A stretch of DNA of 64,000 bases from Acidobacteria bacterium RIFCSPLOWO2_12_FULL_68_19 (GTDB taxonomy: Bacteria; Acidobacteriota; Vicinamibacteria; Vicinamibacterales; UBA2999). This document shows positions 1,883 through 19,915 of the stretch, in pieces (within the stretch, counting starts at the first letter, position 1; every line of letters begins with the position of its first letter). The notes beneath the pieces are model-generated. The model did not search any database. It was not told the origin of the DNA and saw only the letters and a list, made by a program, of their open reading frames with translations. The stretch spans positions 4,682 to 68,681 of the forward strand of contig MELF01000023.1 in NCBI GenBank assembly GCA_001767525.1, given 5' to 3'. The position numbers were made by a program, and so were the translations under genes.

Positions 1883-2274
1883 AGACCTACCGTGTCGCCT
1901 ATGAACGTGACGAATCGGGCTGGTGGGTTGCGTCGGTGCGTGGCGTCCAGGGTTGCCACACGCAGGGTCGCACCGTCGACGAAGCTCGCCGACGGATTCG
2001 AGAAGCGCTGGAGCTGTTCGTCGACGATGCGCGCCAGGCCTCCATTGTGGATGACGTGAAGTTGCCGAGTGCTGCGGCACGGGCGATTCGCGCCTACGCC
2101 ACTCTTCGCAAGAGGGCCGATCAGGAAGACCGCCGCGCAGCCCTCGCGGCTCGACGCGCGGTCCGGGTACTACGCACGGGCAAGCTGAGGATGAGCGCAC
2201 GCGACGCTGGCCGGCTCCTCGGACTGTCGCATCAACGCGTCCATCAACTCACGCAAGAAGAGGGTGCTCGATAG
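1849..2274 (+). CDS. hicB: HicB antitoxin with C-terminal HTH-like tail
   Basis: YRVAYERDESGWWVASVRGVQGCHTQGRTVDEARRRIREALELF is the HicB/UPF0150 fold signature. The C-terminal MSARDAGRLLGLSHQRVHQL is HTH-like. ATG at 1864 is an alternative start. Confidence 0.8.
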   Translation: MSRKGMVEEAVKTYRVAYERDESGWWVASVRGVQGCHTQGRTVDEARRRIREALELFVDDARQASIVDDVKLPSAAARAIRAYATLRKRADQEDRRAALAARRAVRVLRTGKLRMSARDAGRLLGLSHQRVHQLTQEEGAR

Positions 2275-2343
2275 ACATTGCCAGCGGCCCGAAAATGGCT
2301 GGAGAACGCTCGCCGCCCGAGCTGGACTTGCTGACCTCGATGG

Positions 2344-3846
2344 GTGGGCGCCACGGCGCATCGATGCAGGGCCGAAGGGTCGGATGAAGACACGGGAGAT
2401 CGGACGGCGGTGAGGGCGGTGGGTCGCAACGATTCGTGTCCCTGCGGCAGCGGCCGTAAGTTCAAGCACTGTTGCCTTCGCAGCCAGGATGTCGAAGACA
2501 ACCTGCGAGTTCGGTTGCGTTCCGCCGAGGGTGCGCTCGTACCCGTTCTGTTCTCCTACGCCGCTCACGAGTTCGGACGTGAATATTTCGACGAAGCCTG
2601 GGACGAGTTCTTCTTGTGGAACGACGTGCCAGACGACATCGCGAACTCCAAGGAGTGTGGAACCACCTTCGATCCGTTCTTTGTGTTCGACTTCGTACCG
2701 GATGCCGCCGAGGAGCCGCTGCCAGATGGCTGGCCGACCGAGCCGCTGGCGCTGCACTTCCTCCACTACGAGGTTGAATCCGGTCCCGAACTGCACCGCG
2801 AATTCATCGAGCGAGCCTGCAAGAGCCCTGCAAGCTTCTTCGTGGTCGAAGCTGTCTTCGCCGGGCGAGCTCTCGACATCAAAGACATCCTCACTGGGCG
2901 CCGATTCCACGTGCTCGAACAAAGCGCCTCGCGCACCCTGCACGTCGGTGATCTGCTCTTCACGCGAGTCGTCACCGCAGGCGGCGGGAGCATCATGATC
3001 GGGGCCTGCCCCTGGGTGATCCCCGCGTCGTGGCACATTCCGATTATCGATACGCGCGAACGTCTCCGCCCGAAGGGGCTCCTGTCGCGTGAAGACTTGT
3101 TCGACTTCGACTTCGAGATCCGTCAGGCGTACCACGAGATCGTCGAGGCACTGCTGCACCCCGCGCCTCCCGTCATCCAGAACACGGACGGCGACCCGCT
3201 CGAATTGACGACGCTGACCTATGAGCTCGGCATCACGGTGAACGAGGCCGTCGAGCGGCTGATGCCGTTGGCCACGCTGCGCGGCGAAGTCCACATCGCA
3301 GACGACGTGCGGGATGCCACCGGTGCGCTCATGGCCGCTGCGCTGACCTGGATCAAGGCCGGCAATCGCAAGCACAAGGATTGGGACAACACCACACTCG
3401 GAACGCTTCGCCTCGAGGGTTCGAGACTCGTGGTCGAGGTCAACTCCGCACGTCGCCGTCGTCGCATCGAGAAAGAGATCGCGAAATCTCTCGGATCGGC
3501 AGCGACGCTGGTCGACGCGACGATCACTGACATGACCGAGGCTCTCGGGCGCCGGCGCGAGAGGCGCGCCATCACGCCACTGCACCTGGCGACGCCAGCC
3601 GATTCGCCGCGGCCGCCCGAATTCGAAGCGATTGAGGCCGAGCTCGCACGCAAGCACTGGGACGCCTGGCTCGACACCAAAGTGCCGGCGCTTGGCGACC
3701 GCACGCCGCGGCAAGCGGCCAAGACCGCGTCCGGTCGTGAGCGGCTCGAAGCCCTTCTGGCCGACTATTCCCAGAAGAGTGTCAGCGGTCGTACCGCGTT
3801 CGAGCCGGACATCGGCACCTTGAAGCGGAAGCTGGGGCTGGGCTGA
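2344..3846 (+). CDS. SEC-C motif protein with C-terminal Xre/MbcA/ParS(DUF2384)-like segment
   Basis: N-terminal [18 protein letters not shown] is a SecA-type metal-binding SEC-C motif. C-terminal [35 protein letters not shown] resembles the toxin-binding domain of Xre/MbcA/ParS antitoxins. The true start is probably a GTG near 2410, just before the SEC-C motif. Confidence 0.7.
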
Positions 3847-6332: not shown

Positions 6333-6406
6333 TGGGAGGTCGTTCAACGGTAGGACACGTGGCTCTGGACCACGTTATCGGGGTTCGAATCCCTGCCTCC
6401 CAGCCA
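6333..6406 (+). tRNA. tRNA-Gln (anticodon CUG), CCA encoded
   Basis: 74 nt folded by hand. Acceptor stem TGGGAGG/CCTCCCA, D stem GTTC/GGAC, anticodon stem CGTGG/CCACG with loop CTCTGGA (anticodon CTG), T stem CGGGG/CCCTG with loop TTCGAAT. U1-A72 pair and G73 discriminator are as in bacterial tRNA-Gln. Confidence 0.95.
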
Positions 6407-6773
6407 CTAAGTCGTTCACTAGCAACAACTTACGGCACGAGAGATCCGGCCCGATCAACTGGTCTTGCGCCACATTATCAGTCTCGGTATCGACACCCGA
6501 GCAACCGCTTGACGTTCAAGGGGTTAGCGAACGCCAGGGCCACGTTCGCCGATTCGCCCAGAGACACGAATGAGACACGCGGCAAATTCGATCGCCGTCC
6601 CGCGCGCGCGCCCACACCTCGTCCTGTCCGATGCCGGCGGGCGATGAGCTCGGGCCTGGATGCTGGGGCGACGATGCTATCGTCGTCGGGCCGGGGCGAT
6701 ATCGATGCGCCAAGGATGAAGGCCATCGAGAACGGATGTCGCCATGGAGCGGGCTGTCACGCGCTGAACTGCG

Positions 6774-7412
6774 ATGTCGGATTTGGTTCATCAGGTCACT
6801 GTCGACCACTCCGAGAGGCGCTCGGCATTACTGGATGCTGTGCGTCGGACCGGCGCGTTCCAGGTGCGGATGGCGCGTCTCGCGACCGGTGACTATCTGA
6901 TTGGGAACGATGTGCTCATCGAGCGGAAGTCGGTCGCCGACTTGGCCGCCTCTCTCGTCGACGGACGCCTGTTTCCGCAGGTGGCACGACTGGCTCACAG
7001 CGGCTACCGATCCCTTCTGCTGATCGAAGGCTCGGCGACCACGTCGATTCCTGATGTGCATCCCCACTCGCTCGAAGGCGCACTCGTGTCGATCACGGCC
7101 ATGTGGCGCGTGCCGGTGCTGCATTCGTCCGATGCGGAACAGTCGGCGCGCATGCTGCACTTCCTTGCCGATCAGGTGCGTGGACCGCACGAGCGAGTTC
7201 TGCGGCGATTCGACCAGAAGCCGAAACGCCTCGCATCGAGAAAGCTCTTCCTGTTGCAGGGGCTACCAGGCGTCGGTCCTGCTCTCGCGCAGCGCCTGCT
7301 CGACCACTTCGGGACCATCGAACGCGTCTTCACGGCTGACGCGTCCGCACTGGGTGAGGTCCGAGGTGTCGGTCCCAGGAAGGCCGCCCGCATCCGGGAA
7401 CTCGTTCTCTGA
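6774..7412 (+). CDS. ERCC4/XPF-type nuclease with C-terminal (HhH)2, copy 1
   Basis: 212 aa. Has the ERCC4 catalytic signature LATGDYLIGNDVLIERKSVADLAASL (GDY...ERKxxxD). The C-terminus has two helix-hairpin-helix motifs: LQGLPGVGPALAQRLLDHFG and VRGVGPRKAARIRELV. Confidence 0.8.
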   Translation: MSDLVHQVTVDHSERRSALLDAVRRTGAFQVRMARLATGDYLIGNDVLIERKSVADLAASLVDGRLFPQVARLAHSGYRSLLLIEGSATTSIPDVHPHSLEGALVSITAMWRVPVLHSSDAEQSARMLHFLADQVRGPHERVLRRFDQKPKRLASRKLFLLQGLPGVGPALAQRLLDHFGTIERVFTADASALGEVRGVGPRKAARIRELVL

Positions 7413-7475
7413 CGTGGGGCACGGCTCTATCGATCGGTTGCCTCTCCATCGCTGACGATCTATATTGATCGAGAA

Positions 7476-7889
7476 GTGGCCACACGGCGCAGCCTGCCCG
7501 TCCGAGGGCGATCGCTCCTGAAGGGCGGGCGCAAGCGTGTCCTCGTCGTTTTGTTCGTCCCGAGCGTCGAGCGTGATGGGAGGGCTCCCATCGACCAGGA
7601 TCGCTGGGTCGACGCTGCCTTGGACATGTTCGGGCGTGTGTTTGGAGGGGCGACCGCCTATCCAAAGGCGAAGGGTGTCTGGCGCGACGATGAACGAAAC
7701 GGCGCACTGGTGAAAGACGAACCAGTCGTCGTCCATTGCTACACGACGCGCGCCGACATCGAGGACGCCAGACACCTGGCGGAACTCGGGACCTTCTGCA
7801 GAACGATGGGCCGCGACGCCCGTCAGGGCGAGGTTGGGTTGGTCATTGGAGACGAGTATTTTGCGATCCGTGAGTTCACGGAGGAGTGA
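7476..7889 (+). CDS. hypothetical protein (137 aa), second gene of ERCC4 cassette
   Basis: GTG start. Non-Arg-biased composition: VLVVLFVPSVERDGRAPIDQDRWVDAALDMFGRVFGGATAYPKAKGVWRDDERNGALVKDEPVVVHCY. Tightly spaced with flanking same-strand genes. No family recognised. Confidence 0.55.
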   Translation: MATRRSLPVRGRSLLKGGRKRVLVVLFVPSVERDGRAPIDQDRWVDAALDMFGRVFGGATAYPKAKGVWRDDERNGALVKDEPVVVHCYTTRADIEDARHLAELGTFCRTMGRDARQGEVGLVIGDEYFAIREFTEE

Positions 7890-7892
7890 CAG

Positions 7893-8258
7893 ATGAAGTC
7901 GAGCCTCGACATGAACAAGATCGCTCGTGGGCTTCGCGCGGAACGCAAGGGCACAGTCTCGGTCGGCGGCGGCTACTTCGGGGCGATGCAGCTGCTGGCG
8001 GAGATCGAGGCGCGCTTCCGCGTGCCGATGGGCGGAGGGCGGGCAACGGATCCCGAGTGGACCGAACGACGGCTGGTCCCGTTGGCCCCCCGAACCCTCA
8101 AGCGTCTCGAGGCGATCACGGAAGGCGTCAGAGCGCGGAGCGGCGTGAGCGTGGAACCGATGCAGCTCGCCGCCTTGTTGCTCGAGAAGACGACCGAACA
8201 GCTCAACGACGATGACGTGAGGGATCTAGTCACTGGCCAGCGGCGTGCGAGTCGGTGA
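7893..8258 (+). CDS. hypothetical protein (121 aa), third gene of ERCC4 cassette
   Basis: ATG 4 nt after the previous stop, with GGAGGAG upstream. Sequence includes MNKIARGLRAERKGTVSVGGGYFGAMQLLAEIEARFRVPMGGGRATDPEWTERRLVPLAPRTLKRLEAI. No family recognised. Confidence 0.55.
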   Translation: MKSSLDMNKIARGLRAERKGTVSVGGGYFGAMQLLAEIEARFRVPMGGGRATDPEWTERRLVPLAPRTLKRLEAITEGVRARSGVSVEPMQLAALLLEKTTEQLNDDDVRDLVTGQRRASR

Positions 8259-8262
8259 TTGA

Positions 8263-8577
8263 GGGCAAACGCCCACGCATCTGGATGCCACAGACATTCA
8301 AGTTCAGGCCGACGCTGGACCATGTTCACGAACCGCAAGAGACCAGCTCGACACGGATGAGGCCGAAATCCGCCGGCGATATGCCACACGCCTCTTTCAG
8401 CAGCGCCTGCACCAGCGCGAGTTCCGCGAGCGCGTCGTGCGGGCGTACCAGCATCACTGTGCAGTCTGCCGCCTGCGGCGCGATGAGCTTCTCGACGCGG
8501 CTCACATCGTACTGAAGCGGTGGCGTCGAACACTCGAACAAAACCGAGCGGAGCGGCACGGAGCGCCACCGGTCCGC
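8263..8577 (+). pseudogene. HNH (HNH_2-type restriction-endonuclease-like) fragment, truncated at the islet junction
   Basis: In-frame LDTDEAEIRRRYATRLFQQRLHQREFRERVVRAYQHHCAVCRLRRDELLDAAHIV matches the FR..V..AY...CAvC......L.AAHI core of HNH_2 nucleases. There is no N-terminal domain or start codon. Homology is lost after AAHIV, and the frame runs into the tRNA-fragment repeat. Confidence 0.5.
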
Positions 8578-8625
8578 GGCTCTTTGGACCACGTTATCGG
8601 GGTTCGAATCCCTGCCTCACCGCCA
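8578..8625 (+). repeat. degenerate copy of tRNA-Gln 3-prime half (att-like)
   Basis: GGCTCTTTGGACCACGTTATCGGGGTTCGAATCCCTGCCTCACCGCCA versus tRNA 6361-6406: a 2-nt insertion in the anticodon-loop part and two substitutions in the acceptor arm. No 5-prime half upstream. Confidence 0.75.
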
Positions 8626-8636
8626 TTTAAGTTGTT

Positions 8637-8888
8637 CTATCCATTCACATTTCCTCCGAGCTCAGGCCCCGTCTCCCCCAGGTCTCCAAGATTCCTGCAG
8701 GACGAGGGCTGATCCAGCAGCCGAATCGCACCGTCCAGCGCTGCCGGACTCAGGTGCATGTACCGCTGTGTCATGCCGAGCTCACCGTCGCAGACGCTGA
8801 TGACGTCGAGCACACGTTCGAGTTCCGATCGATGGTCGTGCCCACAGGTCACGCCCTGTATGCGCGAGAGCGCGTGCCTGAGGGGCAA
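8637..8888 (-). pseudogene. tyrosine-recombinase (integrase) C-terminal remnant
   Basis: GHDHRSELERVLDVISVCDGELGMTQRYMHLSPAALDGAIRLLD resembles the box II region (H.LRH ... LGH....T..Y.HL) that carries the catalytic Tyr. There is no room for the remaining roughly 300 aa. It lies directly after an att-like repeat. Confidence 0.45.
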
Positions 8889-9230
8889 GAGGGCTACGAG
8901 TTCTCCGTCCTCGGCGACTTCGACGCCAACGCGTGGGACCTATTCAGGTTGCTGTACGACCGGATTCAGCACGGACTCGCCGTCCGCCACGTGGAACGAG
9001 GCGAGCTCGGCTGGCGGATCACGGACGCACGTCATCTCGTCGGCCGCATCACGTGGGATCCTGACCGCGCCGGGGAGGTTCCGCTGTTGGTCATCGACGG
9101 CCGACCCTTCACCTGGGATCAGGTGGGCCGGATGTTGATGTCCTTCGAGGGCTTCACGCTTCGGGCGTTCGTGGACGACAGCATCGAGGTCATCGGAGGC
9201 CCACTTCTGGACGAAGAGGGGAAAGTCTGA
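8754..9230 (+). CDS. hypothetical protein
   Basis: GYEFSVLGDFDANAWDLFRLLYDRIQHGL...LVGRITWDPDRAGEVPLLVIDGRPFTWDQVGRMLMSFEGFTLRAFVDD looks protein-like. The N-terminal about 26 codons overlap the integrase remnant on the other strand, so ATG 8832 is the more likely start. Confidence 0.45.
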   Translation: MHVPLCHAELTVADADDVEHTFEFRSMVVPTGHALYARERVPEGQEGYEFSVLGDFDANAWDLFRLLYDRIQHGLAVRHVERGELGWRITDARHLVGRITWDPDRAGEVPLLVIDGRPFTWDQVGRMLMSFEGFTLRAFVDDSIEVIGGPLLDEEGKV

Positions 9231-9296
9231 ATCGGGAATCCTTTCCGCTTGATTCTCGTCTGGCGACGATGACATCGTCGTCGTGCGGAATCGGAT

Positions 9297-9944
9297 ATGG
9301 ACGCGCGAAGAACGAAAGGGTCGCTTGCTTCAAGGATCACTACGTCGCCGGGCATCCCTGACTCTGTCCATCAGCTCGCTGTCGACCACTCCGAGCGCGA
9401 CTCGGTATTGCTGGACGCGGTGCGTCGGAGCGGCTGGTTCGACGTGCGGATGGCACGTCTGGCTACCGGCGATTACTTGGTGAACGGCGAAGTGCTGGTC
9501 GAGCGAAAGACCATTCGTGACCTGGTCGCCTCGCTCGTTGACGGTCGCCTGTTTCCGCAAGTGGCACGATTGGCTCACAGCCCACACCGATCGCTGCTCC
9601 TGATCGAAGGTCCGACGCCTTTCTCGCTGCCGGACGTGCATCACCACTCGGTGGAAGGAGCACTCGTTTCGATCGCCGCCATGTGGCGGCTTCCCGTGCT
9701 GCAATCATCCGACTCGGAACAATCGACCCGCATGCTGCGGTTCCTGGCGGAGCAGGTGCGCGGACCACAGGAGCGAATCCTGCGGCGATTCGACAGGAAG
9801 CCGAAACGTCTTGCGTCGAGGCGGCTTTTCCTGCTGCAGGGGCTGCCAGGAGTGGGACCCGCGCTCGCACACCGGCTCCTCTGCCACTTCGGTTCAATCG
9901 AGCGGATCGTCACCGTGGACGCCGCCACACTGGCCGAGGTGTGA
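9297..9944 (+). CDS. ERCC4/XPF-type nuclease, copy 2, ended by an in-frame TGA before the last HhH
   Basis: Paralog of 6774-7412 (RMARLATGDYLVNGEVLVERKTIRDLVASLVDGRLFPQVARLAHS...LLQGLPGVGPALAHRLLCHFG). TGA at 9942-9944 sits where copy 1 has CGA (Arg). The homologous GIGARTAARIRELV continues in frame up to 10049. Confidence 0.7.
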   Translation: MDARRTKGSLASRITTSPGIPDSVHQLAVDHSERDSVLLDAVRRSGWFDVRMARLATGDYLVNGEVLVERKTIRDLVASLVDGRLFPQVARLAHSPHRSLLLIEGPTPFSLPDVHHHSVEGALVSIAAMWRLPVLQSSDSEQSTRMLRFLAEQVRGPQERILRRFDRKPKRLASRRLFLLQGLPGVGPALAHRLLCHFGSIERIVTVDAATLAEV

Positions 9945-10306
9945 GGCATCGGCGCAAGAACGGCGGCGCGTATTCGAGAGCTCGTTGGCAGTCCATCTCC
10001 GGGCGGCTCTATCCACCACCTCGCACAGGAGGACCAAACACGCGGCTGACGAACGTCGAGCGGAGACCACATAGCGATGCGAAAGAAACCAGTCGGCACC
10101 AGAAAACCGAAGGCGCTTCGCGAGCGTGTCGAGGCTCTGAGGAGAGCCGGCGTGATCGCGTGGAGCGGACGGCGGCTGCGACCAGCGAAGCCCGCGGGGC
10201 AAGGTCCGTGGCATCAGGACTATCGCCGACGTGCTTGTCGAGAACCGCGAGTAACGGTGTCTTCAACGCGAGTGCTTCGGTTAGCCGTCGTCCTGGAGGA
10301 GGTCCA

Positions 10307-10816
10307 TCACGAGCGATCTGTCGATGTCGCATTCGCTGGTTCTGCGCCTTCTCCCACGTGCGCGAGCGATTCGCGAATCAGAGCGGGTGCGATGCGGAAG
10401 CCCTCCGCGACGAGCGCGTCAAGCACGGGCTTGAGTGCAGGGAGCAATGCCCGTCGTCGCGCGTGAACGAGCACGCCGAGTGTTCCCCGCACGGCGAGAC
10501 CACGCGCCTGTGCCACCTTCCGGCCCACTCGCTCGTCGATCAGAAGGAGATCGGCCCGAAGAGATTCGGCGACGAGTATCGCCGCGGTCTCTCCTGGATC
10601 CAGCCCAAGGTCTGACTGTGGCGAGGGCTCATCGACGACACGCAACCATCGCGCATGGCGGAGCGCGTCAACGCCAGGCGCGGACGGACGCCGTTCCACG
10701 GCTTCATCCCACACCGCTCTTGGCACCACGACGTCCTCAAAGAGCGCTGGAAGGAGGTGAAGGGCTCCGACCCGCGAGAGATAGATCAGGGGCGAGCTGT
10801 CTGCGACGACCAGCAC
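10307..10816 (-). CDS. DUF3368 PIN-like toxin
   Basis: MLVVADSSPLIYLSRVGALHLLPALFEDVVVPRAVWDE...DPGETAAILVAESLRADLLLIDERVGRKVAQARGLAVRGTLGVLV is the typical DUF3368/COG2405 pattern. It lies downstream of a UPF0175 partner. Confidence 0.8.
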   Translation of the reverse strand: MLVVADSSPLIYLSRVGALHLLPALFEDVVVPRAVWDEAVERRPSAPGVDALRHARWLRVVDEPSPQSDLGLDPGETAAILVAESLRADLLLIDERVGRKVAQARGLAVRGTLGVLVHARRRALLPALKPVLDALVAEGFRIAPALIRESLAHVGEGAEPANATSTDRS

Positions 10817-10822
10817 GCGGCC

Positions 10823-11077
10823 TCAGCGCTGGCTCTTCGGAATGGCTCCGAGCTCTTGCCTGAACTCTTCGACGTCGTGATCGATGGCGTAGAGGCCGTG
10901 CCGGCCGGCCTCGATGAGGAAGTCGTCGAGCGTCATGTCGAGTGCGCGTGCCGCGGAGGCACGAGTCAATCGGCCGGCTCGTACTTCGTCGATGACCAGG
11001 AGAAGACGCGCGCGCCTGGCCAATTCGTCGGTCGGCTGCTCAGAGAGCGGGCCCGGAATCTCGACTGTGATCTCCAT
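10823..11077 (-). CDS. UPF0175-family antitoxin
   Basis: MEITVEIPGPLSEQPTDELARRARLLLVIDEVRAGRLTRASAARALDMTLDDFLIEAGRHGL fits the UPF0175/COG2886 pattern. Start taken at internal ATG 11077, not the track start 11272. Confidence 0.75.
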   Translation of the reverse strand: MEITVEIPGPLSEQPTDELARRARLLLVIDEVRAGRLTRASAARALDMTLDDFLIEAGRHGLYAIDHDVEEFRQELGAIPKSQR

Positions 11078-11280
11078 GGAACTTCTCATTCCGATTGTAG
11101 CCGTACCATCCGCTCCCAGCGGCATCCTGAAGCGAGGCTGCACAGAGCGACAGGGCCTGAGACACAATGAGACATTTTGTGCGTGAACAAAGCAGAACGG
11201 AGGGGAGCCTACCGAAGCGATAACGTCGAAAACTGGAACAAGACAGAGCGGGGCGGCACGGGCCGCACCCATTCACCGCT

Positions 11281-11324
11281 CTCTGGACCACGTTATCGGG
11301 GTTCGAATCCCTGCCTCCCAGCCA
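11281..11324 (+). repeat. exact copy of tRNA-Gln 3-prime half (att-like)
   Basis: 44/44 nt identical to 6363-6406 (anticodon loop through CCA). Upstream sequence cannot form the anticodon stem or 5-prime half. Confidence 0.9.
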
Positions 11325-11616
11325 AGTTCGAACCCCGGGTCGCACACCGACAGAACATCAATCATTTCGAACACTTCCACGCTCGAATACATGCAGTCGG
11401 ACTGGGAACGTCAAACCGATCTTGGACACTTTGGCGACTAAGAACTCAGCCAATTGTCGAAATTCCTAATGTTGTCGCCGGGCCGGTCCGCTTCAGCACT
11501 CGCGAGAATTGACCCGCGTCTGCTCGCCGAGAATGGACCACTCGCAGCAGGCTCGCATCGTGTATCTGGGGCTGACGTGCGTGCATGCTATCGTATCGAA
11601 TCTGTCAGGAGGCGCT

Positions 11617-12402
11617 GTGCGCTACGCCGAGTTCCGTGATCGACTCGAAGATGCGCTTCAGGAGGCGGGGCTCTTCTTCCAAGGCGCTGATCGGCACGTC
11701 GAGACGATTGACCTCGCGCACGCCGCACGGAGCTGGAAGGTTCATCTCTTCGGAGCGGCACTTCCGAGCGCAGATCCCTTCCACGTTTCGGCGGAGATCG
11801 GTTTTGAGTGGAGTCCCGTCGATGCGGCTCGCGCGTACACCACCGAAGAAGACCTCCTCACGGAACTCGTGGGCAGGAGGCGGCGACCGATCAGGACGGA
11901 GCGCAGGTGGACACGGATAGACCTTTCGCTTCACGCGAGCCTCCCGTACGGTTCGACGACGTCGATGCCGGACTCCCGCGTTCTCGGCTCGTGGACGGCT
12001 TCTGTTGTAGAGAAGGCTGATGCTGCCTTCACCGACATCGAGGAGAAGAAAGGGCGCGTCGTGGCCGTCCTCGGCGGGCACGGGGACGTCGAAGTGCACG
12101 CGCACTGCAAACCTGACGGCGTCATTTCGCTGAGGGCGGTGGCCATCTCCGGCTTCCGCTTGGTTCGTGTGCCCCGGGTCTGGGACGATCCCGAGCGCCG
12201 CGAGGCCGAGAGGGACCTCGCCGACCTTGGTGGACTGGCGCGGAGGCTCAAGACCGCACTCGATGAGTGGACGAGGAGTGTCTCGGAACTCGCGACCTGG
12301 ATCCGGTACTCGCCGCCGCCACCGGAAGCGAAACCAGCCGAACCGTGGGTCGAGGATCAATCCGAGGACGACAATGACAGCGGGCCGGAGACGACGCACT
12401 GA
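11617..12402 (+). CDS. hypothetical protein (261 aa), convergent with SWIM-SNF2 helicase
   Basis: GTG at 11617 preceded by AGGAGG (11607-11612). Sequence includes VRYAEFRDRLEDALQEAGLFF and an acidic, Pro-rich C-terminus. No family recognised. Confidence 0.5.
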   Translation: MRYAEFRDRLEDALQEAGLFFQGADRHVETIDLAHAARSWKVHLFGAALPSADPFHVSAEIGFEWSPVDAARAYTTEEDLLTELVGRRRRPIRTERRWTRIDLSLHASLPYGSTTSMPDSRVLGSWTASVVEKADAAFTDIEEKKGRVVAVLGGHGDVEVHAHCKPDGVISLRAVAISGFRLVRVPRVWDDPERREAERDLADLGGLARRLKTALDEWTRSVSELATWIRYSPPPPEAKPAEPWVEDQSEDDNDSGPETTH

Positions 12403-12503
12403 CTGAGAGCGCGCCGATAGCGGCGTTGTTGCGCTGGTTCGCCGTGTGCGGCTGCCTCGATGAAGCGGCGCGACAGTTTCTCTGCGCGATCGATCTTGCT
12501 CAA

Positions 12504-15263
12504 CTACGCGTTCGGTCGAACGCGCCGAGTGGGACCTCTTCCGGTGGCCGGCGGTGTGGCGGCGGCCTGGAGCAGCTGCGCCATCCCGGAGAAGAGCGCT
12601 CCCAACGTCGACGCGGCTTCAGGCGGCGCCTCGATGACCAATCCGCCGCTGGCGGTACGTCGCACGGTCACGCCGGCCACGAGACGCTGGATGGCGGCAG
12701 CCGAATCCGCTGGCTCGGGCGCGTTGGCGATTGTGGCGAGCGCCACGTCATGCGACTCGTCCCCTGCCGCCACAACCGCCTCGATCTCGCGCTCGGCACC
12801 ATCGTTCTCGGCCACGCTGACATCCTCAGCGCGGCTCGGCGCGGGCGAGATCGCCGGCACGACGATACGCTCGATGCGGGAGAGAAAACTTCCGGAGCGC
12901 TCGAAGACCACCGCGTCGGTCGTCCCGTCGAACAGTCCAGTGAAGAGCGCCTGCTTGGACCCGACGAGCTCGGCGATCCGTGACTCGATTCCCGGCTCGC
13001 TCACCAGGTTGTAGACGTCAATCGGGCGGCGCTGTCCGAGACGGTAGATCCGGCCGATGCGCTGCTCGAGCACGGCGGGATTCCAGGGAAGCTCGATGTT
13101 GATGCAGGCGCTCGCGGCGCGTTGCAGGTTGAGGCCGACGCCGCCGGCGTCGGTTGCGAAGAGCACGCGGCAGGCGGGGTCGTCGTGGAAGTCGACGATG
13201 TTCTGCGTGCGCCGCTTCTGGCCCTCCTCGCCGGTGAAGAACGCCGGTCTGACGCCCTCTCGCGAGAGCTGGTCGCGCGTCGCCCAGTGCGCGAGTCGGA
13301 GCATCCGCCGCCACTGGCTGAACACCACCACCTTGCGCCCTTCGGTCAGCGCGAGCTGACCGATCAGCTCACGCAGTTCCACCAGTTTCGGGCTCGCCAG
13401 TCCCCGAAGCGTGGAGTCGGTGGGCCGCTCGATCCGCGACAGGTCGGGCCAGACCTGTTCGAAGCGCAGCTGGGCCAGGCCGTTGGCGATGATGCGCTGC
13501 GTGGTGAGCAGCGTCATCAGACGGAGGAACTCCGCCTGCGTGAGCGGACGCCGCTTTGCGCGGCCGAGGATCTGCGCGATCGGCATGGTGAGCGCGTCGT
13601 GCTCGTCGATCTGCTCCGCGGTCATCTCGATGGGAATCCGCGTGTCGGTCCGCGCGGGCAGCTGCGAAAGCACCTCTCGCCGCACGCGCCGGACCATGCA
13701 CACGGCTAGACGGGTCCGCAGCGTCTCGAGGTTCCGGGCGCCGCTGATCTCCGTTGTTCCATCCACGGGCGTGGTGTGCCACGCGGCCAGGCGCCATTTC
13801 GGCTCCAGCGCCAGGTCGTCGACCCACTCGACAATCGACGCGAGCTCGTCGAGCCGGTTCTCCATCGGTGTGCCGGTCAGCACGAGACGGTACGGTGGAT
13901 CCAGGCGCTTCACGGTCAGCGCGGTCTTCGTCGCCCAGTTCTTGATCCGCTGGGCCTCGTCGAGCACTACGATGTCGGGCGCCCATTCGCGAACGACGTC
14001 GATGTCGCGAATGAGCTGCTCGTAGTTGCCCAGGAGGAATCCGCGCCGACACGCCTCGAACGCCGCGCAGCGCTGGGAGGGTGTCCCCTCGACGACGGTG
14101 GCCGGAGCGTCGGTGAAGGCCTGCCACTCACGAAGCCACTGCGGCTTGAGCGCGGCGGGGACAACGATGAGGCCACGGCGGACGCGGCCAGCATGCCAAA
14201 GAGCGTGGCAGGCGGCAATCGCCTGCGCGGTCTTGCCGAGACCCATATCGTCGGCAAGGAGCAGGCGTCCCCGCACGAAGAACCGGTCAACGCCGTCGCG
14301 CTGATAGGGATAGAGCGATTGCTTGAGGGTGTGCAGCGCGCGGTGCAGGCGCGTCCGGGTGCTCGCGGTCTGCACCTGACGCGCGAGCCGCACGCGCTCT
14401 TGCTGCAGCAGTGCGTGCAGTGCCGGCTCGCTGTTGCCGTCGCTGAGCACGCCGAGCAACCGATCCACGAGCGTCCGCCGCTGCTGCAGCCCTTCGGGAA
14501 TCGCGGCGGTCCAGCCACGTCCCTTCGTTGAGCGCAGCCAGCGCCGCAGACCGCGATCGGGCACACCGTCGACCCAGCGCACGCGCGCCAGCCAGTGGCC
14601 AAGGCCGGTCAGCGGGCGGACGGGATCCCACCGCAACGGTGCCGGCGCGGGAGCCTCCTCGCGTTCGATATCCACCCGACGCCGCTTCGAGACCACGTCC
14701 TCGAGGACGGCGACGAGGTGCTTGCACAGCCCGAGCGAGTTCCGGAGGAAATCGGCGCAGTCGCAACTGCCGTCGAGCGGCTCGATCCGACGGAGGAGCG
14801 TGCGGTACGGGCGTGCGCGCGACCCACGGCGCCTGGTCGCGTACAGACCCAGCAGCCGGCTCCGTGGACGTCCGACGATCTGAATCTCGTCCACGTGAGT
14901 GGACGCGCAGCGGCGAAGCACCGCCTCGAGCGCGTCGCGCTGGATGGGCCAGTCGCCTCCCTGCGTGACCGACAGGACGTGGCGCACGATGCGCTCGGCC
15001 GGCACGCCGCCCGTTCGCCGGCGCGCGCGCGCGAGCAGCGTCTGGTAGGCCTCGCTCTCGGTGATGGCGATCGTCTCGGGCTGAGATGAACGACTCTGCA
15101 TATCTTCCCCGTTGTCGGAAGTTGGGATCGGTGTCGGCGAGTCGACGTATTCTTCCACAGACGCGATAAACGGAGCTGGGACGTCGTTTTGAACTCCGAT
15201 ATCGACGGTGCGAGGTGGCCGCATGGCGAAGAAGCGTCGAGCACAGGCCGTGGGCATGAACAA
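12504..15263 (-). CDS. SNF2-family helicase with N-terminal SWIM zinc finger
   Basis: SWIM motif CDCADFLRNSLGLCKH. Helicase motifs LLADDMGLGKTAQAIA (I), VLDEAQRIKN (II), LTGTPMENRLDEL (III), LFATDAGGVGLNLQ (V), ELPWNPAVLEQRIGRIYRLGQ (VI). The N-terminal boundary is uncertain (see the frameshift finding); ATG at 15101 is an alternative start. Confidence 0.85.
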   Translation of the reverse strand: MFMPTACARRFFAMRPPRTVDIGVQNDVPAPFIASVEEYVDSPTPIPTSDNGEDMQSRSSQPETIAITESEAYQTLLARARRRTGGVPAERIVRHVLSVTQGGDWPIQRDALEAVLRRCASTHVDEIQIVGRPRSRLLGLYATRRRGSRARPYRTLLRRIEPLDGSCDCADFLRNSLGLCKHLVAVLEDVVSKRRRVDIEREEAPAPAPLRWDPVRPLTGLGHWLARVRWVDGVPDRGLRRWLRSTKGRGWTAAIPEGLQQRRTLVDRLLGVLSDGNSEPALHALLQQERVRLARQVQTASTRTRLHRALHTLKQSLYPYQRDGVDRFFVRGRLLLADDMGLGKTAQAIAACHALWHAGRVRRGLIVVPAALKPQWLREWQAFTDAPATVVEGTPSQRCAAFEACRRGFLLGNYEQLIRDIDVVREWAPDIVVLDEAQRIKNWATKTALTVKRLDPPYRLVLTGTPMENRLDELASIVEWVDDLALEPKWRLAAWHTTPVDGTTEISGARNLETLRTRLAVCMVRRVRREVLSQLPARTDTRIPIEMTAEQIDEHDALTMPIAQILGRAKRRPLTQAEFLRLMTLLTTQRIIANGLAQLRFEQVWPDLSRIERPTDSTLRGLASPKLVELRELIGQLALTEGRKVVVFSQWRRMLRLAHWATRDQLSREGVRPAFFTGEEGQKRRTQNIVDFHDDPACRVLFATDAGGVGLNLQRAASACINIELPWNPAVLEQRIGRIYRLGQRRPIDVYNLVSEPGIESRIAELVGSKQALFTGLFDGTTDAVVFERSGSFLSRIERIVVPAISPAPSRAEDVSVAENDGAEREIEAVVAAGDESHDVALATIANAPEPADSAAAIQRLVAGVTVRRTASGGLVIEAPPEAASTLGALFSGMAQLLQAAATPPATGRGPTRRVRPNA

Positions 15264-15264
15264 C

Positions 15265-15429
15265 GACGGACAAGCGGGTCGCTGCGTTGACCGGCAGCAC
15301 GACGCCCTGAGGTTTGCTGAAGAGGACGGTGGCGTAACAATCGCCGAGGGTGGTTGTTGACGTCACCTCACACGGTGTGCTGTGACCGAGCCGATCGAGG
15401 AGCTTACGAGTGCGGCGTACGACGACCAT
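15265..15429 (-). pseudogene. DUF6933-like leader ORF in a different frame from, and abutting, the SNF2 ORF
   Basis: MVVVRRTRKLLDRLGHSTPCEVTSTTTLGDCYATVLFSKPQGVVLPVNAATRLSV resembles the DUF6933 N-terminus as I remember it (..KLL..LG....STT.LGDWYA......q.lvL.v...trL.vv.P). After about 15265 this frame becomes Arg-rich nonsense, while the similarity seems to continue in the SNF2 frame (MPTACARRFFAM...VPAPFIASVEEYV). Confidence 0.4.
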
Positions 15430-15601
15430 GGGTCACTCGTCCCCGTTGGTCGGGGCGCACCGGACCGGCCGCTGCGCCCTCAGGCGTCGGGGCTGGCGGG
15501 CGTTCCATGCAGGCGTCAGCGTCCGAGCGCGCAGTAGCCCCGGCAACTTCGTGATCTCGATGTTGCAAACTACGGCACCTTGCGATGCGCCGTCAGGCGC
15601 G

Positions 15602-15898
15602 TCAGCGGTCGATTCTCGATCGCCAGTAATCGGGGCGGCGGCTTTGATGGGCGAGGACCTCGACGCGCACCACATCGGGCGGCAGGCTGTAGATCAGCGA
15701 GAACGGGAAGCGCTGGAGACCATACTTGCGTAGATCGGCGTCGACGGAGATTCCAATCTCTGGATGCGCCAGCAGAATGTCGAGCGCCCGTCGAACATCC
15801 GCGCCGAAACGCTGGCCGAGGCCAGAGACCTGATGCTCGTAGTATGCCGCCGCCTCAATGAATTCCAACTCCGCTTCCGGGTGGAATTCAAGTCTCAT
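15602..15898 (-). CDS. ParE/RelE-family type II toxin
   Basis: 98 aa. MRLEFHPEAELEFIEAAAYYEHQVSGLGQRF...RFPFSLIYSLPPDVVRVEVLAHQSRRPDYW is the plasmid-stabilisation ParE-like pattern. A 4-nt overlap joins it to the upstream antitoxin. Confidence 0.8.
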   Translation of the reverse strand: MRLEFHPEAELEFIEAAAYYEHQVSGLGQRFGADVRRALDILLAHPEIGISVDADLRKYGLQRFPFSLIYSLPPDVVRVEVLAHQSRRPDYWRSRIDR

Positions 15899-16128
15899 CG
15901 ATTCAAGCGCGCGCGAAGGTTTTCGAAGACACGGTCGCCCGAAACGGGCTGGACCTTCCCGTCAATAACCTCGCGGTGTCGCCGTTGGGCCTCGTCGATC
16001 CACGCCAGCTCAACGTCGGCCTCGACTGGTCCGTCGAGTTCGGCAAGCAGTGCGCGAATGAGGCCCGTCCTGTCGTCCGAGTCCAACGATCGGATCTGTG
16101 CTTCCAGTTCGGCAACAACTCTCGACAT
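15895..16128 (-). CDS. addiction-module antitoxin (putative addiction module component type)
   Basis: 77 aa. VAELEAQIRSLDSDDRTGLIRALLAELDGP...AWIDEAQRRHREVIDGKVQPVSGDRVFENLRARL is typical of the small helical antitoxins paired with ParE/RelE toxins. Confidence 0.7.
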   Translation of the reverse strand: MSRVVAELEAQIRSLDSDDRTGLIRALLAELDGPVEADVELAWIDEAQRRHREVIDGKVQPVSGDRVFENLRARLNR

Positions 16129-16468
16129 GTCACCTCCGTACAGCCAGCGTTGGCCGTCTCCATATTCTACAGCCGTGACCCACGGTGGCAGATTGACCGT
16201 CCCCCTGGCATTCCGGCCGTGCGCCCATCGGCTTGATCTACTCCTTGTGGGAGACGTTCCGAGTGCACTCCGGAGATTCCCTTCGATGAAACTCGGGGAA
16301 GCCCTTTACGTCGAGTGTCATTTCGAGTGTCATTGCGCTGGCAAAATACGAAAACGGACGCGAACGGACGAAAGCCGACGACAGAAGGCGAAAACGCTAA
16401 ATCGCTGGCTTCTCGCGAGTTCCAGCGACACGGCCCATGTCTATTGGTGTTTCGTGAGGTTGGCTCGG

Positions 16469-16489
16469 CGAATCCCTGCCTCCCAGCCA
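16469..16489 (+). repeat. short copy of tRNA-Gln 3-prime end (last 21 nt)
   Basis: CGAATCCCTGCCTCCCAGCCA is identical to 6386-6406. Upstream sequence diverges. Confidence 0.6.
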
Positions 16490-16742
16490 AATACGCCTCT
16501 GACTGTCAGTCATTTAGTCGCGGGTGATCGCGCCATCCCCGATTACGTGGTCTGCGAACACATTCTGAACGTTTCACGGCTGCGTTGGTAAACGTCACCA
16601 CGAAGTTGCTGGACGTCAAGGAGTTGGACGGTTCCGTCACGACGGTCCGATTGAGTAGGGACCTCGAGCTCTTGACGAAAAGTTGACGAGCTGGCCGCTA
16701 TGACTGCGTCCGTACGCGGTCCGGTCAGTCCCTCCGGTATTC

Positions 16743-18731
16743 TTGGGCGCGGCATTGACCAAACCATCTGCACGCGCGTCCGCGTACTACTCCAGACCCG
16801 TGGATCTCTTTCTCGCTACCGATCCGTACGAGGTGCTTGGTGCTCTGAGTGCGGCACACATCTACGACCTCGAAGTCGAGCAGCGTCAGGCGTGGGAAGA
16901 GGAGTTGAACATCCTAAGAGTCGCTCTACGGGGGCTATCTGGCACTCTCTGTCTCGAATTCGACGTCCCGCGCCTTGGCAGCCGAATCGACGCCGTGCTG
17001 GTTTCTGGGCCAGCAATCTTTCCCATCGAGTTCAAGTGCGGAGAACGTCAGTTCCGTCTCCCCGACTACAACCAGGCGTGGGACTACGCGTTGGACCTCA
17101 AGAACTTTCACGCTGCGAGTCACGACGCACCGATTTGTCCCGTCCTCGTGGCGACGGAATCTGACACCGCCGATGAGACCTGGCAGGGCCCATATCCGGA
17201 CGGCGTGCGGCCGCCGTATCGTTGCGGCGCTCGCCACCTCGGCGATGTTCTTCAACGTGGTCTCGCACTGACCAGCGGACCTCCGATCGACGGCGAGGCT
17301 TGGGGAGCCGCTCCATATCAGCCGACGCCAACCATCATTGAGGCGGCCCGGGCTCTCTACGCGCGACACTCGGTCGAGGCGATTTCGCGCAGCGACGCCG
17401 GCGCCAAGAACCTACGCGTCACGTCAGCCAGCGTCGAGGAGATCATCGAGCGCTCCCGAGGCGACCGTGACAAGTGTGTCGTCTTCGTCACGGGCGTACC
17501 CGGCGCCGGGAAGACGCTCGTGGGCTTGAACGTGGCGACACGGCGGCGGATGTTGGGAGAAGCCCGTGCGGTCTATTTGTCAGGAAACGGTCCGCTGGTG
17601 GCTGTTCTTCAGGAGGCGCTCACGCGTGACGAACTCGCGCGCATCGGACACACCGAACGGAAGGGGGCGGTGCGCCAGAGGGTGAAGCCGTTCATTCAGA
17701 ACGTCCACCACTTCCGGGATGAGGGCGTGCGCACGACCATTGCCCCTTACGACCACGTGGTCATCTTTGATGAAGCACAGCGCGCGTGGACGCGGGCGAA
17801 GACCGCCGACTTCATGAAGCGTCGGAAGAAGATTGCGACTTTCGACCAGTCCGAACCGGAGTTCCTTATTTCCTATCTGGACCGGCACGATACGTGGGCG
17901 GTTGTCATCTGTCTCGTTGGAGGCGGGCAGGAGATCCACACGGGCGAGGCGGGGATCGGCGAATGGCTCGAGGCCGTTCGGCTCCACTTCCCGCACTGGC
18001 GTGTTCATGTTTCACCGAATCTCACCGACTCTGAATACGCGGCGCAGTCACCTCTGGAGCGCCTCGCCGCCGTGGCGTCGATCGTCTGGGACGATCGACT
18101 CCATCTCGCAACGTCAATGCGATCGTTCCGGGCGGAGAAGGTGTCCGCGTTCGTCAAGGCTGTTCTCGACAGTGACGTAGTCTCGGCCCGAACACTGCTC
18201 CGGGAGGTTACGCGGCGGTATCCGATTGTCGTCACGCGCGACCTGGCACGCGCGAAGACATGGATCCGCAGCCACGCTCGTGGTTCCGAGCGCTACGGGC
18301 TGGTCGCATCGTCGCAGGCCCAACGCCTCAAGCCACACGCGATCGATGTCCGCGTCAACGTCGATCCGGTCCAGTGGTTCCTGAACGACAGGCATGACAC
18401 GCGATCGAGCTATTACCTGGAGGATGCCGCAACCGAATTTCAGGTGCAGGGTCTCGAGCTCGACTGGGTCTGCGTGACGTGGGATGCAGATTTGCGACGC
18501 CATGCGGAGTCATGGCGCTACCACTCGTTTCGCGGAGACGGATGGACGACAGTCCACAAGGAAGACCGGAAGCGCTATCTGCTGAACGCCTACCGCGTTC
18601 TGTTGACACGGGCGCGCCAGGGAATGGTCATCTTCGTGCCGCCTGGCGACGAGTCGGACCCGACTCGTGCTCCGTCGTTTTACGACGACACCTACCAGTA
18701 CCTCACCGGCCTTGGAGTCGCCGAGGTCTGA
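16743..18731 (+). CDS. DUF2075-family P-loop NTPase with N-terminal PD-(D/E)xK-like nuclease motif
   Basis: 662 aa. N-terminus RIDAVLVSGPAIFPIEFKCGE (a D...E.K restriction-endonuclease-like motif) and QAWDYALDLKNFH. Walker A VTGVPGAGKTLVG and Walker B VVIFDEAQRAW. ICLVGGGQEIHTGEAG is typical of DUF2075. Confidence 0.8.
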   Translation: MGAALTKPSARASAYYSRPVDLFLATDPYEVLGALSAAHIYDLEVEQRQAWEEELNILRVALRGLSGTLCLEFDVPRLGSRIDAVLVSGPAIFPIEFKCGERQFRLPDYNQAWDYALDLKNFHAASHDAPICPVLVATESDTADETWQGPYPDGVRPPYRCGARHLGDVLQRGLALTSGPPIDGEAWGAAPYQPTPTIIEAARALYARHSVEAISRSDAGAKNLRVTSASVEEIIERSRGDRDKCVVFVTGVPGAGKTLVGLNVATRRRMLGEARAVYLSGNGPLVAVLQEALTRDELARIGHTERKGAVRQRVKPFIQNVHHFRDEGVRTTIAPYDHVVIFDEAQRAWTRAKTADFMKRRKKIATFDQSEPEFLISYLDRHDTWAVVICLVGGGQEIHTGEAGIGEWLEAVRLHFPHWRVHVSPNLTDSEYAAQSPLERLAAVASIVWDDRLHLATSMRSFRAEKVSAFVKAVLDSDVVSARTLLREVTRRYPIVVTRDLARAKTWIRSHARGSERYGLVASSQAQRLKPHAIDVRVNVDPVQWFLNDRHDTRSSYYLEDAATEFQVQGLELDWVCVTWDADLRRHAESWRYHSFRGDGWTTVHKEDRKRYLLNAYRVLLTRARQGMVIFVPPGDESDPTRAPSFYDDTYQYLTGLGVAEV

Positions 18732-18745
18732 CTGAATCGGGCCGT

Positions 18746-19213
18746 TCAACGCCTTAATAGACGCTCATCGAAATCGAATGGATGTGGATCGCCGACGCGA
18801 ACGGCTCCGAAATCCTGGTGTCGCGGATTCAACAGGTAGTTCAACTCCGATTCAATGACAGCGCTCGGCACTTTCAGGACCGCTGACCTGCCCGCCTTAA
18901 CCCATTCGTCACCAATCAGCTGGAGCTCGGGCGGAGCCGGATACGAGCGCCAGTTAGGGGGAAGGCGCTTCGAGTCGAGACGCTCCACAAGGGCTTCATC
19001 GAACGTACAGGCGATGAGGACGTACGCACTCAGGATCGACCGGCGCCGCAGGTGGACTAACAGCTCCAACGTCGCTAACGCCGCGCTCTCGGACGCGTAG
19101 ACGAGGGGCGTGCCTGGTGAATTCCAGCGTCCGCCTTCGAGACGAGCGCCCTCGCCATCGAAAGCGTTCGCGGCGTGTCTGGCCTTGACGATCCGCCAAG
19201 CCGTAATCGCCAC
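18746..19213 (-). CDS. RES-domain toxin
   Basis: AWRIVKARHAANAFDGEGARLEGGRWNSPGTPLVYASESAALATLELLVH...VLKVPSAVI carries the R-E-S residues pattern. GTG at 19213 shares one base with the TAG of the upstream antitoxin. The track N-terminal extension is rejected. Confidence 0.85.
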   Translation of the reverse strand: MAITAWRIVKARHAANAFDGEGARLEGGRWNSPGTPLVYASESAALATLELLVHLRRRSILSAYVLIACTFDEALVERLDSKRLPPNWRSYPAPPELQLIGDEWVKAGRSAVLKVPSAVIESELNYLLNPRHQDFGAVRVGDPHPFDFDERLLRR

Positions 19214-19731: not shown

Positions 19732-19871
19732 TATGCGCCATTTGCGCCCTTGACGAACACTTGACAGATTGCGCACGAAGGGGCCGTCCCCGACCGGAGA
19801 CGCCCGACGATCTGCCCGATTTTCCTAAGGAAACCGAAGCAACCCAGAATCACCCACGTCGATTGGGCCGC

Positions 19872-19915
19872 CTCTGGACCGCGTTATCGGGGTTCGAATC
19901 CCTGCCTCCCAGCCA
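19872..19915 (+). repeat. copy of tRNA-Gln 3-prime half, right boundary of the islet array
   Basis: 43/44 nt identical to 6363-6406 (A to G at 19881). No 5-prime half; preceding bases cannot pair as an anticodon stem. Confidence 0.9.

Follow-up and report, generated by a model that had tools for sequence, protein, structure and literature searches.

A candidate toxin-antitoxin-like or defence-like gene pair beside an ERCC4 nuclease gene on a decayed tRNA-Gln islet of an Acidobacteriota bacterium

Distribution and linkage of the B-C gene pair

We examined a compact three-gene cassette in a 64,000-nucleotide stretch of DNA, hereafter the window, from Acidobacteria bacterium RIFCSPLOWO2_12_FULL_68_19 (contig MELF01000023.1, forward-strand positions 4,682 to 68,681; window coordinates below count from its first letter). 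The cassette consists of a gene for an ERCC4-type nuclease and, downstream on the same strand, two small genes that we call B and C. An initial annotation had grouped the three as one nuclease-based defence or element-maintenance module. Its description of the layout was accurate: the three open reading frames (ORFs) lie where it placed them (Table 1), with gaps of 63 bp (7413-7475) and 3 bp (7890-7892), the GGAGGAG site of C is present, and both peptide samples that it quoted occur in the small ORFs. Its grouping fared differently, as B and C are an autonomous unit that is separable from the nuclease gene.

Both small genes are genuine, as the initial annotation had maintained, with 2539 (B) and 1984 (C) homologous clusters at 90% identity. 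The best 120 cluster matches of each protein are 75-98% identical to it, and the few source-given names shown among the matches all read 'hypothetical protein'. A profile search of 1.84 billion cluster representatives placed 1461 clusters at 50% identity in the B superfamily (E <= 1e-3). In a species-level scan that used one genome per species, we analysed the best 80 of 209 B relatives as loci (handles of the form L019 denote individual loci or contigs). Their B proteins are 64-84% identical to the window protein and come from more than ten phyla, including Acidobacteriota, Rokubacteria, Planctomycetota, Myxococcota and other delta-proteobacteria, Gemmatimonadota, Chloroflexi, Dormibacteria, Latescibacterota, alpha-, beta- and gamma-proteobacteria, and others. 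C directly follows B in 76 of these 80 loci, and the remainder are mostly cut by contig ends. The pair is common in soil and groundwater bacteria, and its occurrence is patchy: 6 of the 401 genomes from the phylum carry B, 11 genomes from the same family all lack it, and the genome of the window has a single copy.

The conservation of the pair reflects selection rather than recent spread. Ratios of nonsynonymous to synonymous substitution (dN/dS) against relatives are 0.06-0.15 for B and 0.17-0.24 for C, synonymous sites are saturated, and the guanine-plus-cytosine (GC) content of the module follows that of the host flanks (r = 0.75). Some copies stand alone amid ordinary metabolic genes (L096, L099). 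Others lie near tRNA genes; a tRNA gene is found within 700 bp of B-C in 10 of the 80 loci, against about 1.2 expected (binomial P ~4e-7). In L019, a tRNA-Ser gene, B-C and a repeat of the tRNA end make up a 1.33-kb islet with no other content. A 1.77-kb tRNA-Leu islet in L037 also contains B-C (the tRNA repeats are 21 nt in L019 and 21-23 nt across the two islets), and L003 has the same tRNA-Gln arrangement as the window. No integrase was found in the L019, L037 or L003 islets. Because B-C persists as the sole content of a decayed islet in L019, it behaves like an addictive module.

Linkage to the nuclease gene is far looser. ERCC4 adjoins B-C in three of the 80 loci (L015, L016, where it is a fragment, and L039), and a DUF7686/DUF7713 gene does so in two. 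ORF clustering gave no third conserved neighbour, although the crude longest-ORF calls picked antisense ORFs in high-GC loci. The order ERCC4-B-C also recurs, with the same spacing, in related contigs from metagenomes or metagenome-assembled genomes (L001, L002, L003) and in a Logan contig; in L003 the nuclease gene is frameshifted and B-C is intact. Of the 401 genomes, 26 have ERCC4 homologues and 6 have B, and the only genome shared by the two sets is that of the window itself. Neither B nor C lies within 1.5 kb of ERCC4 at any of the 28 ERCC4 loci in other genomes of the phylum. The three genes therefore do co-localise, and this is a property of one islet lineage and not of the genes: this tRNA-Gln islet lineage carries ERCC4 as cargo in its own right, separate from the B-C unit. 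In annotation, B and C should be kept apart from the nuclease.

Promoter, palindrome and the two proteins

The B-C pair is predicted to be transcribed from a strong promoter of its own. The TTGCCT-17-TATATT element is the only promoter-like site between 6300 and 8800 and lies inside the 63-bp gap, and a TTGC or TTGAC box stands about 17 nt 5' of TATATT in most related loci. A 16-bp near-palindrome, CGATCTATATTGATCG, is centred on the -10 box and ends 4 nt before the GTG start of B. With this start just 9 nt beyond the -10 hexamer, the transcript would have little or no leader. The planctomycete versions instead carry a short leader that includes a GGAG site, and their B has a shorter N-terminal tail. 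We also note two GATC sites within the palindrome.

With up to two mismatches allowed, 74 of the 80 loci have CGATCTATATTGATCG 5' of B, and the 764 kb that these loci span contain no other copy. The loci that lack it are informative. In L087, L088, L091 and L094, C is replaced by unrelated sequence after residue 44-47; in L055, C lacks residues 37-88; and in L073 no C was found. Of the evidence that the middle and C-terminal part of C recognises the palindrome, this covariation is the strongest. Together with the dedicated promoter, the palindrome fits an autoregulated operon as far as the sequence goes, and the pair retains both elements even behind ERCC4. Being nearly invariant between phyla and covarying with a single protein domain, the palindrome offers a directly testable protein-DNA pair.

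C appears to be modular, with an N-terminal segment (residues ~1-45), a core at ~58-103 and a basic tail. A ribbon-helix-helix-like DNA-binding core would fit the pattern GGGRxTDPxW-TERRLVPL-(helix)-(helix) and the operator covariation. The AlphaFold2 (AF2) model of C is mediocre (predicted local distance difference test score, pLDDT, 68.9), with the first 60 residues poorly defined, the N-terminus probably disordered, and helices at 66-83, 89-103 and 106-120. Conservation within C is highest in the N-terminal 45 residues. In the four loci with replaced C, residues 1 to 44-47 are fused to unrelated C-terminal parts, and the persistence of this segment while the rest is swapped suggests that it is the part that binds B. 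Two of these fusions (L087:2545-3648 and L094:6382-7482) join the C N-terminus to a domain of about 320 amino acids (aa) without a Pfam or NCBIfam match; the hosts of the swapped loci belong to Gemmatimonadota and Latescibacterota.

Damage to the pair falls more often on B. Independent nonsense alleles of B occur at four codons (L030, L043, L047, L092) and frameshifts in L093 and L085, with C intact in every case, so that 5-6 of the 80 loci carry a null B beside an intact C. This asymmetry has the direction expected if B is costly. Recoding of the in-frame stops was considered and rejected; they fall at different codons (C88, Y62, W69, Y89) and use different stop codons, as ordinary nonsense mutations would.

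Structure prediction, which the initial annotation had recommended for both small proteins, was informative for B. The AF2 model, which is of high confidence (pLDDT 88.6, predicted template modelling score 0.80), has a disordered basic N-terminal tail followed by a strand, a helix, two hairpins, a helix and a hairpin, which we read as a PII-like alpha/beta sandwich. The top solved structure in Foldseek is the phage S-adenosylmethionine (SAM) lyase Svi3-3 (6zm9, E 3.8e-6, template modelling (TM) scores 0.63/0.67 over 128 columns), followed by 6znb (E 3.5e-5; TM scores over both entries 0.57-0.67). CutA1 trimers come next (E ~1e-3), and PII proteins are also among the matches. In BFVD, a set of predicted viral structures, uncharacterised phage proteins rank first (E 3e-8 to 1e-4), with annotated phage SAM hydrolases lower (E 4e-3).

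SAM lyases are PII-like trimers with the active site between subunits, and those known are barely alike in sequence among themselves; in Svi3-3, the strictly conserved G56, E69 and Q104 lie at the trimer interface, and Tyr58 and Glu105 also belong to the SAM site (PMC7877911). The most conserved positions of the wide B family are P29, W44, G58, T60, G67, W69 and an invariant Q117 within a Q-G-E motif. In the succession of secondary-structure elements, G58 and Q117 occupy the places of G56 and Q104 of Svi3-3, after helix 1 and helix 2 respectively; in the window-type subfamily, D71 lies 13 residues past G58, the spacing that separates Svi3-3 E69 from G56; and Q117-G-E119 resembles Q104-E105. 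B therefore shares the fold and probably the kind of ligand site, without being classifiable as a SAM lyase, and because the lyase residues are only partly kept, SAM cleavage is just one possibility.

Sequence searches relate B to PHROG 3543 and, at a distance, to DUF3574. The profile phrog_3543 matches 41 of 64 diverse B relatives (best E 8.9e-11), and window B itself only weakly, below threshold. A tblastn search of PLSDB plasmids returned Bacillus and Priestia proteins annotated as DUF3574 (30-32% identity, E 3e-7), whose genes stand alone without a C partner and were the only relatives found there. DUF3574 (PF12098) matches 3 of the 64 relatives (E ~3e-3) and not window B at the gathering threshold; the sequence matches place the relation of B to DUF3574 at superfamily level only. 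No match to B was found in GenBank phages (tblastn) and no relative among IMG/VR viral contigs, PDB sequences searched with the B and C alignment profiles gave nothing, and literature on DUF3574, on DUF7686/DUF7713 and on SAM lyases with an antitoxin yielded nothing relevant.

More distant B homologues (32-50% identical) are also followed by a C homologue, C', and by a third gene. By hhalign, the C profile aligned with the C' of L013 at Prob 96% (E 2e-9) and with that of L131 at Prob 53% (E 1.3e-4). These cassettes lie at L013:8068-9672, L014:6741-8520(-), L131:5001-6762 and L133:5001-6712. The third gene encodes a trypsin-like protease in L013 (Pfam Trypsin_2, 1.4e-9) and a protein of 258-277 aa in L014, L131 (a Luteolibacter chromosome), L133 and L134. 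The L014 protein carries an HELGHH (HExxH) motif and matches nothing in Pfam, and the L131 protein is a weak PADLOC capP match (E 1.9e-4). Known defence genes are found nearby, with AAA_21 and DUF4276 at L014 and Multi_ubiq/ThiF/BubE at L133 and L134.

The tRNA-Gln islet ladder and its other cargo

The mobile setting claimed for the cassette is supported by a tRNA-Gln gene and direct repeats of its 3' part. Window positions 6333-19915 form a ladder of four decayed islets, in which four same-strand repeats of the tRNA-Gln 3' part follow the tRNA gene (8585-8618, 11281-11324, 16469-16489 and 19872-19915). The cassette lies in islet 1, with an HNH-motif fragment beside it in the 8437-8510 frame, as the initial annotation had reported; we recognise this fragment by ORF translation. 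Islet 2, the sister islet, spans 8626-11324. No integrase gene was found in islets 1 and 2, and the tRNA-Gln island of L015 likewise lacks one. An integrase-tail remnant proposed at 8637-8888(-) was rejected, having no Pfam match, and the tRNA is the sole Rfam match in this region of the window.

TABLE 1. Annotated features of the cassette and its surroundings in the window
Feature	Position	Strand	Basis
tRNA-Gln(CUG), integration target heading the islet ladder	6333..6406	+	ARAGORN; Rfam tRNA, 58 bits
Islet 1, decayed integrative islet between the tRNA and a degenerate 3'-part repeat	6407..8625	.	direct-repeat family D2; blastn-short
Short bacterial XPF/Hef-type nuclease, 212 aa, ERCC4 + (HhH)2 (helix-hairpin-helix)	6774..7412	+	Pfam, NCBIfam
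Predicted sigma70-like promoter of B-C (TTGCCT, 17 nt, TATATT)	7438..7466	+	promoter scan
16-bp near-palindrome CGATCTATATTGATCG, candidate operator for C	7456..7471	.	conservation upstream of B
Protein B, 137 aa, GTG start	7476..7889	+	ORF; AF2; homologous clusters
GGAGGAG ribosome-binding site of C, within the 3' end of B	7879..7885	+	read from sequence
Protein C, 121 aa	7893..8258	+	ORF; AF2; homologous clusters
HNH-motif gene fragment (HHCAVCRLRRDELLDAAHIV), right end of islet 1, 3' of C	8437..8510	+	ORF translation alone
att-like (attachment-site-like) degenerate tRNA-Gln 3'-part repeat, right boundary of islet 1	8585..8618	+	blastn-short, 34/34 nt
Islet 2 DUF7686/DUF7713 gene	8754..9230	+	Pfam DUF7713 1.5e-20, DUF7686 9.6e-20
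ERCC4 copy 2, islet 2	9297..9944	+	Pfam; 76% identical to copy 1, residues 2-211
Islet 2 PIN/DUF3368 toxin and UPF0175 antitoxin pair	10307..11272	-	Pfam DUF3368 8.4e-12, UPF0175 3.5e-9
tRNA-Gln 3'-part repeat closing islet 2	11281..11324	+	44/44 nt

The first gene of the cassette does encode an ERCC4 nuclease, as the initial annotation had stated. Its product matches Pfam ERCC4 (E 3.5e-26, model positions 1-139 of 140), HHH_5 (2.4e-12) and HHH_2, and the GD...ERK...D motif (GDxn-ERKx3D) is intact (GDYLIGNDVLIERKSVAD). The NCBIfam models for the Hef C-terminus (7.9e-52) and archaeal Xpf (1e-31) also match, both far under the curated equivalog cut-offs (176 bits against 610 bits). In this islet family, a DUF7686/DUF7713 gene often stands before ERCC4. 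The related contigs L002 (5050-5290), L003 (3590-3830) and L039 (5020-5260) share a conserved non-coding block, about 200 nt long, directly 5' of ERCC4. Both window copies and L015 lack this block and share a short hairpin, GGCGACGATG..ATCGTCGTCG, instead, which is found in the window at 6667-6691 and 9262-9286.

In the sister islet, the nuclease is interrupted and B and C are missing, in line with the earlier description. Copy 2 contains one in-frame TGA within the (HhH)2 part, and homology runs on past the stop. The conclusion drawn from this, that the three genes are kept or lost together, did not hold: the PIN/UPF0175 pair of islet 2 occupies the slot that B-C has in islet 1. The surviving cargo of the ladder is largely toxin-antitoxin-like. 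The peptide IAWSGRRLRPAKPAG is encoded right behind ERCC4 copy 2 (10077-10200) and also forms the C-terminal extension of the C homologue P0198 on a different contig, a recurrence that suggests, at the level of sequence, a common flank at which B-C was inserted or deleted. A 57-nt repeat (8510-8566 and 11210-11266, 81% identical) sits before the tRNA copies that close islets 1 and 2.

Several further observations concern the neighbouring genes. The islet 2 DUF7686/DUF7713 protein lacks the N-terminal part of about 50 aa, Cys-rich and zinc-ribbon-like, that is present in the 192-aa L015 version (L015:4462-5040), and the window gene is probably truncated at the left end of the islet. L015 also carries what appears to be a helicase-like gene fragment with a P-loop motif, MATGAGKT (1211-2059), and an ORF resembling a RelE/ParE-type toxin gene (2197-2784(-)).

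Interpretation and comparison with known systems

With slightly better than even confidence, we read the locus as an ERCC4 cargo gene plus an independent, horizontally travelling B-C operon of toxin-antitoxin-like or defence-like character, on a decayed tRNA-Gln islet. The toxin-immunity or defence role suggested in the initial annotation thus fits the evidence for the B-C pair and fails for a three-gene system that includes ERCC4. Under this reading, C would bind CGATCTATATTGATCG through its ribbon-helix-helix-like core and repress the operon, and its N-terminal ~45 residues would bind and neutralise B. B would trimerise, with GGAT 57-60, G67-x-W69 and Q117-G-E119 in the interface loops of a ligand site; judging from the model, it most likely acts on a small adenosine-containing metabolite such as SAM. 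It may bind or cleave this metabolite and harm the cell once C is lost, and loss or proteolysis of C would both free B and induce its synthesis. Distant relatives may use a dedicated CapP/ImmA-like metalloprotease or a trypsin-like protease as the trigger, and the two-gene form in the window would rely on host proteases. Such addictive behaviour would explain how B-C survives as the sole content of tiny tRNA-flanked islets.

Several observations weigh against this reading. Neither B nor C matches any family in Pfam, NCBIfam or PADLOC, including known toxin, antitoxin or defence families; this agrees with the initial annotation, which had recognised no family for them, and its suggested PADLOC search for a known defence system gave 0 matches for ERCC4, B, C and their neighbours (PADLOC-DB 2.0, E <= 1). 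Foldseek with the C model returned nothing significant, and the ribbon-helix-helix assignment is drawn from a sequence pattern and predicted helices. In B, the position of Svi3-3 Tyr58 is a threonine (T60), the wider family does not keep the acidic residue 13 positions past G58, and no similarity between the B profile and T3 SAMase emerged from hhalign (Prob 0.1). Intact B also occurs with a damaged or missing C in about 2-4 loci (L060, L073, L078), so that the excess of B-null alleles (5-6 versus 2-4) is small and the asymmetry modest. Lastly, the protein identity of 65-85% between phyla, with synonymous sites saturated, is unusually high for a toxin-antitoxin pair.

A bolder version, which we hold only tentatively and consider rather unlikely as a whole, is that B-C founds a very large undescribed family, in which a PII-like lyase toxin acting on SAM or an adenosine conjugate is paired with a ribbon-helix-helix repressor-antitoxin, which would read the 16-bp operator that more than ten phyla have kept nearly unaltered, and sometimes with a protease trigger. 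The toxin would then arrest the cell or starve an invader of methyl-donor chemistry, and the CapP-like or trypsin-like protease added by some lineages would serve as a sensor of damage or infection.

Among the rival explanations, an anti-restriction or establishment module ranks highest, though it is unlikely. A burst of B on entry would lower SAM and disarm SAM-dependent restriction or BREX, after which C would shut the promoter; B would not be an addiction toxin. This account draws on the top structural match of B, a phage anti-restriction SAM lyase, and on its nearest structural relatives, which are small phage proteins; phrog_3543 matches occur among its relatives, and a Lactobacillus phage homologue lies among small genes near the left genome end. 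The strong predicted promoter under an operator-like palindrome, the order of B before C and the enrichment of the pair beside tRNA genes, where integrated elements end (10 of 80 loci against ~1.2), would also suit it. However, no close relative was found in GenBank phages, IMG/VR or PLSDB plasmids, and the active-site residues of SAM lyases are only partly kept. B-C is often solitary in the chromosome or the last content of integrase-less islets, which is hard to reconcile with a gene needed only on entry, and its distant relatives lie in defence islands with CapP-like proteases.

A non-toxic regulatory pair is a weaker candidate, and we regard it as distinctly improbable. B would be a PII/CutA-like small-molecule sensor and C its partner transcription factor, giving metabolite-responsive control of the pair itself and perhaps of other genes. 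The predicted PII-like fold of B and its structural matches to CutA and PII proteins, the very strong purifying selection and conservation across phyla, and the behaviour of C as a putative DNA-binding partner that covaries with the palindrome are all in keeping with such a role. The distribution is nevertheless that of an accessory gene (6 of 401 genomes, none in the same family), the pair occurs in islets and beside defence genes, and B has repeatedly acquired nonsense alleles. Moreover, no regulon is visible nearby, as the 764 kb of flanks contain no further copy of the palindrome.

The joint system of ERCC4, B and C that the initial annotation had envisaged is very unlikely. Its order and spacing do recur in L001, L002, L003, L015 and L039, and all three genes are intact in islet 1, but ERCC4 stands beside few B-C loci (3 of 80) and B or C beside none of the 28 other ERCC4 loci. 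The independent distributions of ERCC4 and B across the 401 genomes, the dedicated promoter and palindrome of B-C behind ERCC4, the L003 contig with a frameshifted nuclease and intact B-C, and the empty PADLOC search all speak against it. Least probable of all is that B and C are excisionase-like or directionality-factor-like accessories that mobilise integrase-less islets through integrases acting in trans: the L019 mini-islet holds only B-C between tRNA 3' repeats and C is small and probably binds DNA, but the near-identity of B-C and its operator fits poorly with the different integrases implied by islets at Gln, Ser, Leu and Asn tRNAs, the B-C promoter and not the att repeats carries the palindrome, many loci have neither tRNA nor repeats, and the fold of B is of a ligand-binding enzyme type.

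The cargo nuclease has clear counterparts. It resembles short archaeal XPF and the nuclease-(HhH)2 part of Hef in its ERCC4 motif, its two helix-hairpin-helix motifs and its length of about 210 aa, and differs from them in being bacterial, in lying on a decayed mobile islet and in lacking a helicase domain. The B-C pair, which we favour as an independent toxin-antitoxin-like or defence-like operon, can be compared with several other groups. CapH/CapP and ImmR/ImmA are repressor-protease switches, and CapH/CapP induces defence operons after DNA damage. The distant relatives of B-C are similarly arranged, with an effector-like B', a repressor-like C' and an HExxH metallopeptidase near defence systems, and by analogy this order would follow the logic of a repressor-protease switch that releases a defence effector. 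The window cassette differs in having no protease gene, and C is not a helix-turn-helix protein.

In type II toxin-antitoxin operons such as MqsR/MqsA and HigB/HigA, the toxin gene comes first and the antitoxin carries a C-terminal DNA-binding domain. B-C is alike in comprising two small co-directional genes 3 bp apart, with a predicted promoter of their own and a palindrome as candidate operator. As in such systems, C is modular, with putative partner-binding and DNA-binding parts, the first gene decays preferentially, and the pair is patchy, horizontally spread, found in islets and located beside other toxin-antitoxin pairs. In contrast, B-C belongs to no described family, and the modelled PII-like fold of B is not an RNase, kinase or gyrase-poison fold; if the model is right, the effector fold is new to toxin-antitoxin and defence modules.

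The phage SAM lyases (Svi3-3 6zm9/6znb, T3 SAMase) share with B a similar size and a ferredoxin-like alpha/beta sandwich, and the CRISPR-associated SAM-AMP lyase is likewise a PII-like trimer (PMC12255297). B differs from the phage enzymes in its extra hairpin and basic N-terminal tail, and in being chromosomal and paired with a regulator, whereas theirs are phage early genes. B is also distantly related to two uncharacterised families, DUF3574 and PHROG 3543, and the Bacillus DUF3574 genes have no C partner. If B does prove to be a metabolite-cleaving toxin with a SAM-lyase-like fold, a fold known to date from phage counter-defence would also serve bacterial addiction or defence, and the pair would represent a new toxin mechanism.

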